Shown: positions 13,401-27,619, counted from the first letter of the stretch. The stretch is DNA of 64,000 bases from a virus (IMGVR_UViG_3300021431_000113:1-64000), one strand, 5' to 3'. Notes: generated from the sequence alone by a model not told the origin. A program made the numbers and translations.

Positions 13401-13552
13401 ACTTTTTTAGAAAAAAATTTGACAATGCAGGAATTTTATGGTAGAATCGGGGCGCTTCGCAAGCTCGCGCGCCGGCAAATCTTTGTCAATAGGCAAAATT
13501 CACAAAAAATCAGCGCGAATCTGCTTATTTTTCAGCAAATTCGCGCATTTTT

Positions 13553-13930
13553 TCACTTTTTTGGGCGGTGTTTGGTCAATTTTATTGTATATTTCTCGTC
13601 AAAATAAGAAAAATACAGTTCTGTTTCAGTTTTTTGCCCAGTAATTACTACATTTTCATCATCAAAGAGCGCATCTTTAATAATTTGGAGCAAATCCGCC
13701 TTATTATAGTCAATTTTACGCTCTTTTTTAACATTTTTACGAGGGTTTGCACTCTTTTCATAGTGACGTCCGCCCGCCTTAGCTTTCTTATCTATTTCCT
13801 CTTGTTCGGGGTTAGTCATTTTATCATTATCAGCAAGCCATAATTCACAAGCTTCAGCAAGGGAAATATCAAGGTTATCCATGAGTTTATCAATCTCTTT
13901 ATCAGGTATATCAAATCTATTATATTTCAT
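13553..13930 (-). CDS. hypothetical protein, paralogue of 14286..14666
   Basis: MKYNRFDIPD...ISLAEACELW...YTIKLTKHRPKK; start reset to 13930. Confidence 0.75.
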   Translation of the reverse strand: MKYNRFDIPDKEIDKLMDNLDISLAEACELWLADNDKMTNPEQEEIDKKAKAGGRHYEKSANPRKNVKKERKIDYNKADLLQIIKDALFDDENVVITGQKTETELYFSYFDEKYTIKLTKHRPKK

Positions 13931-14285
13931 AAGTTTATCTCCTCTCTTACTTTCTATTGTTATTATAGCATAGCGGTGTTGATTTGTCAACAAAAAAATA
14001 AATATCTTTGGTCTTTTCCATTTCTGCGGTTTTCTGTTAAATTTTAAACAGTCTACATAGTGTACGTTAAGCAAAATTAGAAACGAAAAACCCTCAAAAA
14101 TAGAGGACGGGTCTATTCTTGAGGGGGAGGACACAATCCGACAAAATGGATGGCGGCTGTGTTGAACGACTTTTTTCGAGAAAGTATTTATTTTTTACTT
14201 TCTATAAATATTATACCAAAAAATTTTTTATTTGTCAACAATTATTTTTAGGGGCCGGCCGCAGTTAAGGGGGTCTAACGACCCC

Positions 14286-14666
14286 CTATTTTTTAGGGGG
14301 ACGATGTTTTGTGAGTTTGAATGTGTAGGTTTCGCCCTCAAAAGTGAAAGTGGTTTCAGTTTCTGTCTTTCTGTTGACAACTACTGCGCCCAAATCTTCA
14401 ACGAGTGCGCTCACTTCATCAAGAAAGAATTTTTTAGTTTCATCTACCTTACGAACCTTTTCAGTTTTTTTTCTATTGCCACTCTTTTCGTATCTGCGAG
14501 GAGCGTTCTTTTCGGCTTCTTTGATAGCCTTCTTTGTTTCTTCGCTTTCCTCTTGCTTTCCGCTTTCTTCAAGTATCAAATCACAAGCATCAGCAATTGA
14601 GCAACCGAGCTTTTCTACATACTCATCAATTTTATTATCGTCTACATCAAATCCGTTATATCTCAT
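14286..14666 (-). CDS. hypothetical protein, paralogue of 13553..13930
   Basis: MRYNGFDVDD...CSIADACDLI...YTFKLTKHRPPKK. Confidence 0.8.
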   Translation of the reverse strand: MRYNGFDVDDNKIDEYVEKLGCSIADACDLILEESGKQEESEETKKAIKEAEKNAPRRYEKSGNRKKTEKVRKVDETKKFFLDEVSALVEDLGAVVVNRKTETETTFTFEGETYTFKLTKHRPPKK

Positions 14667-14722
14667 TTTGAGTACCTCTCTTTCATTTGATACTTATATT
14701 ATACTACTTTGGGGTTGACTTG

Positions 14723-15427
14723 TCAACCCCTTTCATATAATTTTTTTCTCATAGGTTTATGTTTTCTAAAGCAATAAGCTAAAATTTCTTTTTCAATAAG
14801 TACATCTTCCAAACCTGTATGACTTTCAACAAAATCATAGTTACTACTTATATATTTATAGATAACCTCAGCTTTTACTTGTGGTCTTGGTGTCTTATGC
14901 TTTGTCATATATCCATTTTCAAGACAAAATGCTTTATAGCTTGGAGTTTTTGCAACTACATCTAAAGCCATTTTCATAGTATCCCAAACTTCTGTGCCAT
15001 ATGGTAAAAAGTTTCTATACTTGGACTTTGTTAGCCATCTTTGAGTGTTTTTCGTTGCGCCATCATCAAACCTTGCATTATGGGCGCATACTATTTTTGT
15101 ATTGTATCTTTTCATCGTATCAGCAAGGTCTTTTCTAATTGTATACCATGTTGCAACCTTGCGCTTGCCACTCTTTATATCTTCCCAATATTTAGGAATT
15201 TTATTGCTATAATAAGCACTATTCATTAAAGTTTTTTCATCCATGAAAATGTCACGATTTATATATGACTTTGTTTCGTAAACAGTACCTTTTTTATCAA
15301 CAACCGCCCACCCAATGTCATATACGAACATATTGAATGGTGAAACACCCTCAAAGTCTTTATCAAGTGGACAAGTTTCTGTATCAAGTACAACGATGTA
15401 ATGCTTTCTTCTGTCGATTTTTTCCAT
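14723..15427 (-). CDS. DEDDh 3'-5' exonuclease (DnaQ-like)
   Basis: VLDTET, AHNARFD, HTGLED motifs. Confidence 0.88.
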   Translation of the reverse strand: MEKIDRRKHYIVVLDTETCPLDKDFEGVSPFNMFVYDIGWAVVDKKGTVYETKSYINRDIFMDEKTLMNSAYYSNKIPKYWEDIKSGKRKVATWYTIRKDLADTMKRYNTKIVCAHNARFDDGATKNTQRWLTKSKYRNFLPYGTEVWDTMKMALDVVAKTPSYKAFCLENGYMTKHKTPRPQVKAEVIYKYISSNYDFVESHTGLEDVLIEKEILAYCFRKHKPMRKKLYERG

Positions 15428-15487
15428 TTTGTTAAACCCTCTTTTCTTTATTTGATATACTTATTGTATCATATCGCTTGGCATTTG

Positions 15488-15949
15488 TCAAGCGATATTT
15501 ACAAGTTTTTCAATTTCTTTCATTATATTATAATTTGCATTGATTGTAGCACCCAATCTCCAACCTTTGCGCACCATTTCGTTATCATCAACTAAAACCT
15601 GATAACCACCAATTTTTCTTGTGCAATTTGCTTTAGTAGTTCCATATTTTACAAGATGGATTTCATCATATGGAAAATTGTACTTTGCAAGCCAATCAAG
15701 TTTTGCTTTTCTTGTTCTGTTATTGTATTCTTTTGTACCATTCTTTGCAAGCCATGTTGTAACAACTACTTTCCAACCTCTTATTTTAAGAGTATTGAGA
15801 AGATTTGCAAGTTCTACCATATTATAAAGTGGCTCTGCTACTTCATAAGGTGTGGTATCTTCGGCTTTAAGATAATCAAGCCAACCTTTTACACCATAGA
15901 AATTTGCGATTGTACCATCCATGTCAAATACGATTGTTTTATTTGCCAT
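15488..15949 (-). CDS. HAD-family nucleotidase-like phosphatase
   Basis: IVFDMDGTI, VVVTT, K, LVDD motifs; start reset to ATG 15949. Confidence 0.8.
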   Translation of the reverse strand: MANKTIVFDMDGTIANFYGVKGWLDYLKAEDTTPYEVAEPLYNMVELANLLNTLKIRGWKVVVTTWLAKNGTKEYNNRTRKAKLDWLAKYNFPYDEIHLVKYGTTKANCTRKIGGYQVLVDDNEMVRKGWRLGATINANYNIMKEIEKLVNIA

Positions 15950-16041
15950 AGCCTTTGTTCTCCTTTCCTTTACTGTAATTACATTATACAGTATAAGAAT
16001 AGAAATGTCAACAAAAAAATAAAAAAAATCATAGGTAAAAA

Positions 16042-16071
16042 TGCACAAAGATCGGGTCCTGTTTTTGTGCA
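16042..16071. promoter_or_regulatory. operator TGCACAA-N16-TTGTGCA
   Basis: Exact inverted half-sites. Confidence 0.75.
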
Positions 16072-25840: not shown

Positions 25841-26008
25841 TTAACCCTCAAAGAAATATTGATTTTCTGCGTTCATGATAATAATTTCTCTAATGTTGAA
25901 AAGTGCTTTTTCTTTTCTGTAAAAGTCAAATACTGCGCAAGCCTGATGTCTATTTGTTGTTGCAAGTATTGTATCTCCATTGATTATTACTTCATAAGTT
26001 CCGTTCAT
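25841..26008 (-). CDS. hypothetical protein
   Basis: Start reset to MNGTYEV. Confidence 0.62.
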   Translation of the reverse strand: MNGTYEVIINGDTILATTNRHQACAVFDFYRKEKALFNIREIIIMNAENQYFFEG

Positions 26009-26098
26009 GTTATCCACCCTATCCCCTCTTTTAGGGGTTCCTTTCCTTTTTTCTGATTTAATAATATCATTTTTTCTAGTATTTGTCAAGCAAAATTT

Positions 26099-26138
26099 TG
26101 CACAAAAAACACAAATTTTATGAATTTATTTTTGTGCA
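26099..26138. promoter_or_regulatory. operator with duplicated left half-site
   Basis: TGCACAA 26099, ACACAA 26109, TTGTGCA 26132. Confidence 0.68.
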
Positions 26139-26269
26139 ATTTTTTATCATTTTTCTACTTGACAAATGCCGTTCTCATGTGGTATAATATTTCGACACTG
26201 AAGCGGAAACGACGCTCTAACCGGTAAAAAGCTTGCCTTGTGGTGATTCAAGGCAAGCTTTCCGCATTT

Positions 26270-26521
26270 TTAATATATTTTTATGAAGTTATTTCTGCAA
26301 ATTCTGTAACCATCTTTATAGTTTCTATCATAAGTTCTAGCTTTTTTCGGTTCGAGTGCAACTTCTTCATTTGTTATCATGTTGATTATTTTTACTTCAT
26401 AATTTTCATCTTTATTATTTCTTGCTATCATTCTAGCAATTTCGATGAACTCTTCATTTTCTACTATTGTTGTTACTTCTTTAGTTTCTTTATTTATTTT
26501 GATTACTTTGTATTTTCTCAT
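26270..26521 (-). CDS. hypothetical protein
   Basis: GAGG RBS, own promoter. Confidence 0.72.
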   Translation of the reverse strand: MRKYKVIKINKETKEVTTIVENEEFIEIARMIARNNKDENYEVKIINMITNEEVALEPKKARTYDRNYKDGYRICRNNFIKIY

Positions 26522-26627
26522 TTTGTTTTCCTCTCTTTCCTTTTTCTTGTCTTTATTATAGCATCTAGAGAGTTAATTGTCAAGCACTTCTTAAAAAATT
26601 TTTTTATTTTTTTGTATGTAGTTAGCC

Positions 26628-26792
26628 TTAGTTAACTACATACATTTTATCATTCATGTTATCCTTTATTGTAACAACTCCGTCAGTAACCTTTGCCATA
26701 CCTTTAGCTACTTCCATAGCATCATTATAATCGTTATAACTTTCTACCTTAGTTCCCTCTGTTGTTCTTACTGTTACCATGTATCTTCTCAT
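26628..26792 (-). CDS. small hypothetical protein (54 aa, below cutoff)
   Basis: MRRYMVTVRTTEGTKVESYND...YVVN*; promoter upstream. Confidence 0.6.
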   Translation of the reverse strand: MRRYMVTVRTTEGTKVESYNDYNDAMEVAKGMAKVTDGVVTIKDNMNDKMYVVN

Positions 26793-26980
26793 CCTTGTAC
26801 ACCTTAGCCTTGCCGGTTTCCTTTCCTTTATCTTATGTATACATTATAGCATTTTTTGTCTAATTTGTCAATAGTTTTTTTATAATAAATTTTTGTTTTT
26901 TATATTAAATTTCTGTCTTTTGCAAAAAACAAAACTTTTGCTTTGCATCGCGAAAAACAAAAATTGTGCAAAAACGCAGA

Positions 26981-27130
26981 TTAGCAGTTAGGCATACTTA
27001 CCCTCAGTTAGACTTGCTTAACCCTGGTTAAACTACCTTACCTACAGCTAAGTATGCCTAACCCAAGTTAAGCTTCTCTAACTGTAGTTAACTGTGCTTA
27101 ACTGCTATTAGCAGTGACTAACAGCTATTA
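26981..27130. repeat. 15 x 10-bp phased degenerate array, (T/C)TA at every tenth base
   Basis: Fifteen consecutive decamers end in TTA or CTA; includes IR GTTAGGCATACTTA/TAAGTATGCCTAAC. Confidence 0.9.
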
Positions 27131-27619
27131 GCCAAACCGAACCGAAAAATCTGCAACCCTGTGCAGAACTAAATCCCGGCGCGCTGTGACCAACACCGCG
27201 CCGAGCAGCCATGTGAGTTGTTTCACATCATAAGTAAAACTTTTATCTAAATAAAAGAAAAGTTTTATATCAATTAATTTGATTCACAAAACTTTTCTTC
27301 TTTTATCAATTTACATTTGTTATTTGTATTATTATTTGATGTGTGTTTGATTGAAACAATCAAAACAAATCTATTATTCAATCAATTATGTGTTGCTCAT
27401 ATTTTGCTCCCCGTACAAAAGGCATTGCCCTCGTTCAAATAATCATCGAGGTCCGCAATGTACCTTTTAAAAATTTCTGGTTGACCTGACTGGGGGGTAG
27501 GGTTTTGGGATAAAAAATTTTTTAATTCACAAAAGTCGTATTGGCACGTCCATTCCCAGAGAAAATAAACTTAAAAACCGAATAACGAAAATTATATTTT
27601 CCCGACCTAACACGGAGTG

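Follow-up and report, generated by a model that had tools for sequence, protein, structure and literature searches.

The stretch IMGVR_UViG_3300021431_000113:1-64000, hereafter the window, comprises 64,000 nucleotides (nt) and forms the start of a 76,166-bp contig of an uncultured rumen phage (32.5% GC), in which no terminal overlap was found. It encodes a tRNA cluster and a tmRNA, and from 28.3 kb onwards its plus strand carries the genes for a phage sigma factor, a terminase, a portal protein and a 2,854-aa tape-measure protein. The interval from 13.0 to 28.3 kb is an early region of small minus-strand genes, with about 38 perfect minus-strand promoters of the form TTGACA-17-TGnTATAAT, each leading to a strong ribosome-binding site and a start codon. 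The present analysis deals with seven plus-strand promoters of this region that point against the gene flow, called here backward promoters, and with the compact units that they form with an operator, usually a very stable GC-rich palindrome, and the terminator of the opposing transcription unit. Three other plus-strand consensus promoters have ordinary targets: the promoter at 12966 leads to a 350-nt non-coding RNA, that at 16325 to the plus-strand gene 16402-16755, and that at 28301 to the sigma-factor gene.

All seven rightward promoters described in the original prediction, which had been made from the sequence of the window alone, are present. When scored out of 12 against the pattern TTGACA-17/18-T(G)nTATAAT, those at 16943, 22238, 23658, 24688, 25354 and 26159 reach 12/12, all with the TG extension, and the one at 13419 reaches 11/12, its -10 element being TAGAAT; no ribosome-binding site or open reading frame (ORF) was found behind any of the units, which agrees with the lack of ORFs claimed earlier. 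Five of the seven directly precede a GC hairpin whose folding stability, compared with dinucleotide shuffles, gives z-scores of -3.2 to -6.4. In unit 2 the promoter (16943-16971) is followed by a 9-bp hairpin at 16980-17001 (-19.7 kcal/mol, z -3.2) that begins at the predicted first transcribed G; in unit 3 the promoter (22238-22267, with an 18-nt spacer and TGTG) precedes a stem at 22275-22312 (-29.7 kcal/mol, z -5.1); unit 4 joins the promoter at 23658-23687 to a bulged stem at 23691-23729 (-25.8 kcal/mol, z -5.0); and unit 6 joins the promoter at 25354-25382 to the most stable hairpin of the series, 14 bp at 25389-25427 (-32.1 kcal/mol, z -6.4). The positions and sizes given earlier for these four strong stems were essentially right, except that the stem of unit 3 has 12-13 bp and not 11, and that of unit 4 has 7+7 bp and not 7+5. 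The promoter of unit 5 (24688-24717) also has a stem, of 8 bp, at 24733-24758 (z -3.6). The weaker stems proposed at 13451 and 26190 did not survive the comparison with shuffled sequence: the GC-rich leader (13449-13474) behind the promoter of unit 1 (13419-13447, TTGACA-17-TGgTAGAAT) folds at chance level (13449-13480, z +0.3), and so does the leader (26194-26261) behind that of unit 7 (26159-26188), which holds no significant hairpin (26194-26225, z -0.2). The promoterless copy is real (27177-27203, 7+3 bp, z -3.6) and lies in a gene-free stretch at 26.9-27.6 kb, and the identical start of two units was recovered as well, TATAATGGAATTTTGG being present twice. An unbiased scan, set to 24-nt segments with 75% GC or more, returned these stems, the promoterless copy and a second, different GC motif; outside coding genes, the GC-rich palindromes of the early region that lack a U run lie behind backward promoters, with the copy at 27177 as the exception, and within this genome the units are confined to the early region.

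The four strong stems (units 2, 3, 4 and 6) are not intrinsic terminators in the sense of a stem with a U tract within 0-2 nt. As had been noted, no U run follows them on either strand, and the next hairpin, 8-10 nt further on, is the terminator of the opposing unit, with its U run on the minus strand only. These one-way terminators lie at 17014-17044 (for the minus-strand unit running from 17242 to 17010), 22324-22343 (gene 22335-22559), 23740-23762 (a minus-strand 335-nt non-coding unit) and 25437-25459 (gene 25441-25749), and each of the four backward promoters therefore points through a one-way terminator in the antisense direction. The stem of unit 5 is an exception in that it is itself the minus-strand terminator behind the early tRNA-Lys (24795-24868, minus strand). 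Units 1 and 7 are exceptions of another kind, since their promoters run into bidirectional terminators, at 13513-13546, where the last minus-strand early gene ends, and at 26228-26261; these would also end the plus-strand RNAs, at predicted lengths of about 100 nt (unit 1) and 85 nt (unit 7).

On the upstream side every unit carries an operator built on TGCACAA and its complement, read here on the plus strand. In unit 1 it shows TTGTGCA / TGCACAA / TTGTGCA arms (13351-13400); in unit 2 it reads TGCACAA-16-TTGTGCA (16889-16928) and doubles as the terminator hairpin of the plus-strand gene 16402-16755; in unit 3 it sits at 22190-22227, between the back-to-back promoters P- 22189 and P+ 22238; in unit 4 TGCACAA..TTGTGCA is followed by AATTTCGGGA in register with the promoter (23575-23622); in unit 5 the second arm is degenerate (24639-24670); in unit 6 TGCACAA is followed by two copies of TTGTACA (25304-25343); and in unit 7 it occupies 26099-26138. 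Units 1 and 2 have an operator and a backward promoter and lack a back-to-back gene promoter, so that the operator belongs to the backward promoter. Unit 4 has a further peculiarity, a perfect minus-strand promoter (23791-23763) that faces the backward promoter at 23658-23687 and would transcribe only the terminator.

The family was followed in about 22 related phage contigs (designated by L numbers below) and in the GenBank phage phAss-1. The window's portal protein has its nearest deposited relatives in an uncultured human-gut contig (56%) and in phAss-1 (38%), and more distant ones in large siphoviruses of Enterococcus, Bacillus and Lactococcus. Scanning viral contigs for a 16-mer common to two units gave 42 matches, five of which display the full architecture of perfect promoter, GGAATTTT, GGCGCG...CGCGCC and opposing terminator; further relatives were collected through a conserved word in the 5' untranslated region of the gene promoters, through the sigma factor, and through one metagenome scan and one genome scan. 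One match falls in a 5-kb contig of the rumen metagenome-assembled genome RUG334 and is probably binned phage DNA. The units of phAss-1 (OQ749652.1, a GenBank "complete genome") lie at 129-135 kb, none of them annotated, and include two face-to-face pairs (130714/130804 and 132917/133008); the paper describing this phage predicts a Clostridia host and mentions neither the promoters nor the hairpins (PMC10607447). The cultured distant relative Enterococcus phage EF1 has no such unit, and no cultured relative with a DNA-level match was found in the phage collection searched. As in the window, a tRNA stands in the early region of relatives L039, L017 and L051.

Across these genomes the backward promoters form a class of their own. 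A set of 390 consensus promoters from 22 sources splits cleanly on the GC content of nt +7 to +36: 281 are AT-rich downstream, and 78% of these lead to a ribosome-binding site and start codon, against only 9% of the 76 with at least 60% GC. Among the gene promoters (n=235), 96% have a spacer of 17 nt and 90% an A at the seventh nt past the -10 element, and the spacer GC content is 29%, whereas the GC-leader promoters (n=79) use spacers of 17 or 18 nt (62/38%) with 44% GC, carry TG in 95% and TRTG in 81%, have GG immediately after the -10 element, and hardly ever place an A at nt 6-12. RNA polymerase favours a purine that follows a pyrimidine about 7-9 nt past the -10 element; given this preference, GGAATTTT would be a discriminator and not part of the leader, and the RNA is expected to start on the first G of the stem. 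The features of the GC-leader promoters likewise predict a start on G or C at nt 8-10, where the stem begins. The distance from the -10 element to the stem is itself bimodal, with one group at 6-9 nt (n=39; mode 7-8) and another at 2-4 nt (n=16).

Placement rules were derived from the 41 start-flush units, defined by a stem that begins 5-10 nt past the -10 element. Nearly all of them (39/41) oppose the local gene flow and 27 directly precede an opposing terminator, so that their promoter, like those of units 2, 3, 4 and 6, points through it; a U-rich tail of the unit's own on the promoter strand was found in 0/41. The stems end about 32 or about 45 nt past the -10 element, in two sharp size classes, and the stem of the opposing terminator starts at a median of about 8 nt after that of the unit, a gap so short that the palindrome abuts the terminator's U tract. 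An operator half-site, T[GA][CT]ACAA, lies 48-50 nt 5' of the -35 element in 25 of the 41 units and a second one at 16 or 26 nt, one helical turn apart, so the operator is predicted to be a protein site held in fixed register and not an RNA hairpin. The backward promoter of most units has the next early promoter back-to-back with it, at 48 or 58 bp from -35 to -35. Stems that begin 2-4 nt past the -10 element follow another pattern, 12 of 17 being co-oriented partner promoters. At ten places in relatives (L021, L030, L046, L057, L063) two perfect promoters converge on a single hairpin, with only 28-38 nt between their -10 elements, and phAss-1 adds its two pairs; two open complexes cannot fit such a pair simultaneously, and an arrangement of this kind makes sense as a stop device and not as a gene. 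Unit 4 is a looser face-to-face version.

What is conserved in the stem is its pairing and not its sequence. Orthologues of unit 2, recognised by the conserved gene end past the terminator, occur in L017, L021, L072, L073, L084 and L085 with unrelated stem interiors; joint alignment with MAFFT and RNAalifold misaligned these variable stems, and per-sequence folds with pairwise alignments were used in its place. Unit 3 and its orthologue in L078 have an identical operator, promoter, loop and flank, and their stems differ only by a compensatory swap of C-G to G-C. A group formed by L039, L077, L086, L071 and L080 shows compensatory divergence of the stem in the same way. The strand on which pairing is selected is less easily read. 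No asymmetry of G-U pairs was detected among 32 unpaired units (6 on the promoter strand, 13 on the complement), and the folding free energy was better on the complement in 19 hairpins and on the promoter strand in 9 (p = 0.08). Lacking a G-U asymmetry, an RNA made from one strand is indistinguishable from a role as DNA or in both RNAs, and there is no sign of selection on the backward RNA alone. A search for loop motifs yielded no shared motif, only a weak purine or GGA bias, and a Shine-Dalgarno-like "5' stabiliser" sequence outside the loops was not general.

Several explanations for the hairpins were considered and set aside. The idea that the hairpin and a terminator of the unit's own are alternatives, which units 1 and 7 suggest, found no correlation in 93 backward promoters, as judged with a crude terminator detector. 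A tRNA-acceptor minihelix (GC stem plus ACCA) does not fit, ACCA occurring only in a few close copies (L017, L021) and in none of the window's units; an R-loop origin is argued against by seven copies and symmetric stems; and an upstream AATTTYRGGA motif, considered as a late promoter, was not found upstream of late genes. Neither the gathering score, applied to the whole window, nor a threshold of E<=1, applied to 12.9-27.7 kb, gave an Rfam match on the hairpins, and twelve related loci yielded only tRNAs. The earlier suggestion that the hairpins mimic repeats of clustered regularly interspaced short palindromic repeats (CRISPR) or toxin-antitoxin RNAs thus gained no support from the 12.9-27.7 kb search, and a solitary CRISPR-repeat mimic acting as an RNA anti-CRISPR was rejected in particular, as none of the CRISPR-DR models of Rfam, the only CRISPR repeats compared, matched at E<=1 and every stem is different, with no recurring repeat.

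The original prediction had offered small RNAs, polymerase traps and insulators as functions. That the unit has a function agrees with its conservation and with the selection acting on it, and among the roles offered a head-on or insulating role in cis is favoured, a family of sequence-specific small RNAs being less well supported. The reading that we tentatively prefer, as the best candidate and still somewhat short of an even chance, is that these are operator-linked head-on promoters that stop read-through, make a 5'-capped cis-antisense RNA, or do both, at the boundaries between transcription units. It is preferred on account of the 39 of 41 units that oppose the gene flow, the position behind a one-way terminator and the fixed register of the operator. 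Each unit would then be a regulatory cassette of fixed geometry at the 3' end of an early transcription unit. Along the gene flow, the cassette consists of a one-way intrinsic terminator and, 3-17 nt on, a very stable GC palindrome; next comes a full-consensus sigma-A promoter aimed back at the terminator, whose RNA is predicted to begin at the first base of the palindrome, then an operator about 49 nt upstream of that promoter and, usually, the next early promoter back-to-back. Polymerases loaded backward would collide head-on with those that pass the terminator, which would seal the unit off from the next and make the dose of the upstream unit tunable. The hairpin would probably cap the 5' end of the backward RNA, thereby blocking 5' decay and keeping the backward polymerase from backtracking during the collision, and is also likely to act as a barrier that is hard to melt, next to the U tract at which the sense polymerase has to halt. 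The early units guarded in this way would include two probable non-coding RNAs and tRNA-Lys.

A number of points weigh against this account. The firing of the promoters and the positions of their RNA starts are predictions from sequence, and a purpose in collision or antisense transcription is what we infer from the arrangement. Only about seven of some 38 early promoters carry a unit, so read-through must be tolerated elsewhere. A collision does not need a palindrome, and the proposed services of the hairpin (5' cap, anti-backtracking, GC clamp) are conjectural; moreover, promoter-bound polymerases are usually dislodged by elongating ones. In units 1 and 7, and in several units of L022, L047 and L039, the backward RNA ends at a real terminator, which means that no gene is transcribed in antisense there and that a discrete small RNA looks like the product. 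Finally, the loops are richer in purines on the strand of the backward promoter (56%, against 47-48% in the flanks), in opposition to the pyrimidine skew of that strand, and contain 12 Shine-Dalgarno-like 4-mers against 1 for their complement, a bias that hints at selection on the backward RNA itself. With both strand signals weak, the stem may act in both transcripts or as DNA.

These last points lead to the proposal that the units make very abundant trans-acting small RNAs, each a GC hairpin with a 5'-triphosphate, either by itself or joined to another hairpin; the partner that they titrate might be a nuclease, an RNA-sensing defence or an RNA-binding protein of the host. We consider this unlikely, though worth taking seriously. 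In its favour, the promoters are full-consensus with no ORF behind them, a hairpin flush with the 5' end is a classic route to stable RNA in Firmicutes, and discrete RNAs of 65-100 nt are predicted from two of the seven units, 1 and 7, which have terminators of their own, and from one orthologue group (L039-3231, L077, L086, L071 and L080), where the hairpin is followed by a second hairpin and a U run, some 65 nt in all, with compensatory divergence. Purine-rich loops against the background skew, the other non-coding RNAs and the tRNA of the same early region, and the conserved non-hairpin leaders (GAATGGGGTGCC...) behind backward promoters in L050, L056, L057 and phAss-1 fit as well. As small-RNA genes, however, the units conserve promoter and structure and not sequence, and a defined 3' end exists in those two units and that one group only, most units having no 3' end signal (U tail in 0/41). 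There is no common stem sequence or loop motif, so that a shared ligand would have to read shape alone; G-U against A-C asymmetry is absent and would, if anything, favour the other strand (6 against 13); no Rfam family matches at E<=1, CRISPR repeat families included; and a trans-acting RNA has no need of a terminator-side position, an operator register or face-to-face pairs. A narrower version, in which the cell is flooded during takeover with operator-controlled 25-45-nt blunt GC hairpins, a new class of RNA with a 5'-triphosphate, varied in sequence and similar in shape, that serve as shape-specific decoys against a host RNA sensor, nuclease or RNA-binding protein, seems to us rather improbable. 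Somewhat more doubtful still is a role in polymerase parking or topology, in which the promoter holds sigma-A polymerase near the operator and the neighbouring promoter, occupancy or supercoiling is what matters, and the hairpin disposes of a short transcript. The backward promoters do carry more consensus elements than gene promoters (TRTG, a GG discriminator, a start 8-10 nt from the -10 element and a GC-rich initial transcribed region), and over-consensus and GC-rich initial features of this sort slow promoter escape. The spacing to the back-to-back gene promoter is fixed at one of two values one helical turn apart, some L047 units have a hairpin and U run right at the start, for a predicted RNA of only 20-45 nt, and a strong promoter can be shielded from its context by a divergent one (bioRxiv 10.1101/2024.03.27.586983). 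Units 1 and 2, however, have no partner promoter to serve, a short untranslated RNA causes little rotational drag and hence little supercoiling, and the compensatory conservation of pairing in the leader is left unexplained.

The units could also be an evolutionary device, promoter and operator cassettes that supply homology for swapping early cargo between phages in the manner of the promoter-early stem-loop (PeSL) cassettes, with a backward transcript that has no role; we give this a small chance. Alignment blocks between the window and L017 or L021 stop at the units, and the cargo on the gene side is replaced at unit 3 (22312-22961 against about 190 nt in L017) and unit 4 (23690-25106 against about 220 nt); PeSLs do mediate such shuffling (PMC2839356, PMC4122927). 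The blocks would stop at the hairpins in any case, given the hypervariable stem interiors, and recombination homology could do without the perfect backward promoter and without pairing in the stem; selection keeps both across phages that otherwise share little DNA. The last alternative takes the stems for ordinary terminators of minus-strand units and the plus-strand promoters for matches that arose by chance in AT-rich DNA; it is so improbable that we reject it, and the comparative data contradict it. In its favour, the stem at 24733 does terminate behind tRNA-Lys, and -10-like hexamers are common in AT-rich genomes; against it stand six promoters of 12/12 with TG, matches in shuffled sequence that are mostly weak while the perfect ones all lie in the early region, four strong stems that follow a proper terminator and show no U run on either strand, and a promoter-plus-stem unit conserved in dozens of contigs.

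Some neighbouring features bear on the components of the units. Two paralogous small proteins, encoded at 16402-16755 (plus strand) and 21592-21909 (minus strand), have in common KKSSKPTKAQ(I/V)ENEG(F/Y)KA and a probable winged-helix end, with only weak Pfam and PHROG matches; each gene is preceded by an atypical promoter lacking TG and by a long AT-rich leader, L017, L030 and L039 contain homologues, and the pair are candidate binders of the TGCACAA operator. The minus-strand unit 17010-17242 opposed by unit 2 (promoter 17270-17242) probably yields a non-coding RNA, about 230 nt long: its sole ORF (16887-17126) extends across the terminator and the GC hairpin, and its 5' hairpin (ATGACAAAGCAAAGTCAT) is kept in L017 and L021. 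With respect to the two promoter classes, the early region at 13.0-28.3 kb and its counterparts in relatives combine an A start for gene promoters with a G start for backward promoters. In Firmicutes the first nucleotide couples promoter output to the ATP or GTP pool, and starvation of the host may therefore affect the two classes in opposite ways. One subclass of gene promoters has its -35 element followed by an inverted repeat of it within the spacer (TTGACAA-N1-4-GTCAA(C/G)CC), for instance at 14726, 17270, 19869, 23791, 24106 and 24396 on the minus strand and many times in L017 and L021; this repeat may be the binding site of a shut-off repressor.

Other observations concern RNA elements of the same region. 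The second GC motif recovered by the unbiased scan, read on the minus strand, occurs at 14250-14275, 16066-16093, 18325-18358, 19284-19311 and 20433-20460, and marks unit boundaries that have no backward promoter; there a stop codon is followed by a variable stem-loop, by single-stranded GCGCCGGCCGCC(C), which is conserved, by an A run and then by the next promoter. The motif is not a standard terminator, as it has no U run. The minus-strand RNA behind tRNA-Lys (24758-24795) and a second site (21300-21325) carry AAAAUCCUCCUUUCCUAU directly before the terminator. This sequence resembles the 3' end of 16S rRNA (anti-Shine-Dalgarno), its complement GGAAAGGAGGAUUUU recurs behind backward promoters in relatives, and related loci lie in L039 (about 5560-5590), L021 (about 7150) and L044 (about 3120). 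The conserved non-hairpin leaders driven by backward promoters in L050, L056, L057 and phAss-1 (L068 499, L069 ~34921) read (A/G)GAATGGGGTGCC...GCGAA..., and those of L057 contain GTTAGCCTAAGCTAAC-like strings that recall an array of TTAG/CTAA with a 10-bp period at 26981-27130 of the window.

Full-text literature searches found no description of a backward promoter-hairpin unit. New here are the statistics of the two promoter classes, with a G start flush with the stem, and the operator register tied to the backward promoter, as well as the spaced face-to-face pairs, the division into two size classes, the tests of strand preference, the clean compensatory swap and the presence of the units in phAss-1. 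Should the cis reading be true, the unit would be a compact and portable transcriptional "full stop", in which a GC block and a regulated head-on promoter are added to a terminator, a natural counterpart of a part built by synthetic biologists, and would explain by what means a genome that packs about 40 consensus promoters into 15 kb separates and times its transcription units; should the RNA reading be true, it would represent a new kind of phage small RNA. Under either reading the unit is a searchable early-region marker for a large group of uncultured Clostridia phages from gut and rumen, phAss-1 among them, and it supplies exact coordinates for RNA mapping.

Several known systems share parts of this design. 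Firmicute 5' stabiliser stem-loops, such as those of the aprE leader, ermC and SP82 early RNA, are likewise stable and stand at the 5' end or a few bases from it; they protect a downstream message, whereas nothing coding lies downstream in the phage unit. In the nut boxB of lambda and the put sites of HK022, promoter-proximal RNA hairpins that modify the polymerase are also transcribed first from a strong early phage promoter, but these have conserved sequences or loops and serve genes lying past terminators that must be read through, in contrast to the variable loops and purely antisense downstream sequence found here, so that the units do not qualify as nut or put sites. The PeSL cassettes of T4-type phages come closer (Arbiol et al. 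2010, PMC2839356; Comeau et al. 2014, PMC4122927). Like them, the present units are compact many-copy cassettes in the early or hyperplastic region, situated between small genes of unknown function, and they combine a strong host-type (sigma-70-type) promoter with an adjacent stable GC-rich stem-loop; they may also lie, as PeSLs do, at junctions where related phages differ in cargo. The PeSL promoter, however, is co-oriented and drives the next ORF, and its stem-loop lies upstream and is a terminator; in the phage unit the promoter is reversed (39/41) and has no ribosome-binding site or ORF, the stem is downstream and the first sequence transcribed, a separate terminator lies past the stem, an operator is attached, and the phage lineage and the host phylum differ.

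Interference between convergent promoters exists in nature, for example between pR and pL of coliphage 186. For divergent promoters, an insulating effect on a strong promoter has been reported (bioRxiv 10.1101/2024.03.27.586983). The nearest likeness is a synthetic part made by Brophy and Voigt (2016, PMC4731013), the "unidirectional terminator + constitutive antisense promoter", in which the upstream gene is repressed, through polymerase collisions, in proportion to the strength of the antisense promoter. The order is the same in both, a gene, a one-way terminator and a constitutive promoter that fires (in the phage, is predicted to fire) back through it. The phage unit, known here from its sequence, differs in having at times a bidirectional terminator, which would cancel the effect, and in being a natural element, present in 7-15 copies per genome, with a 5' GC hairpin and an operator added to the design.

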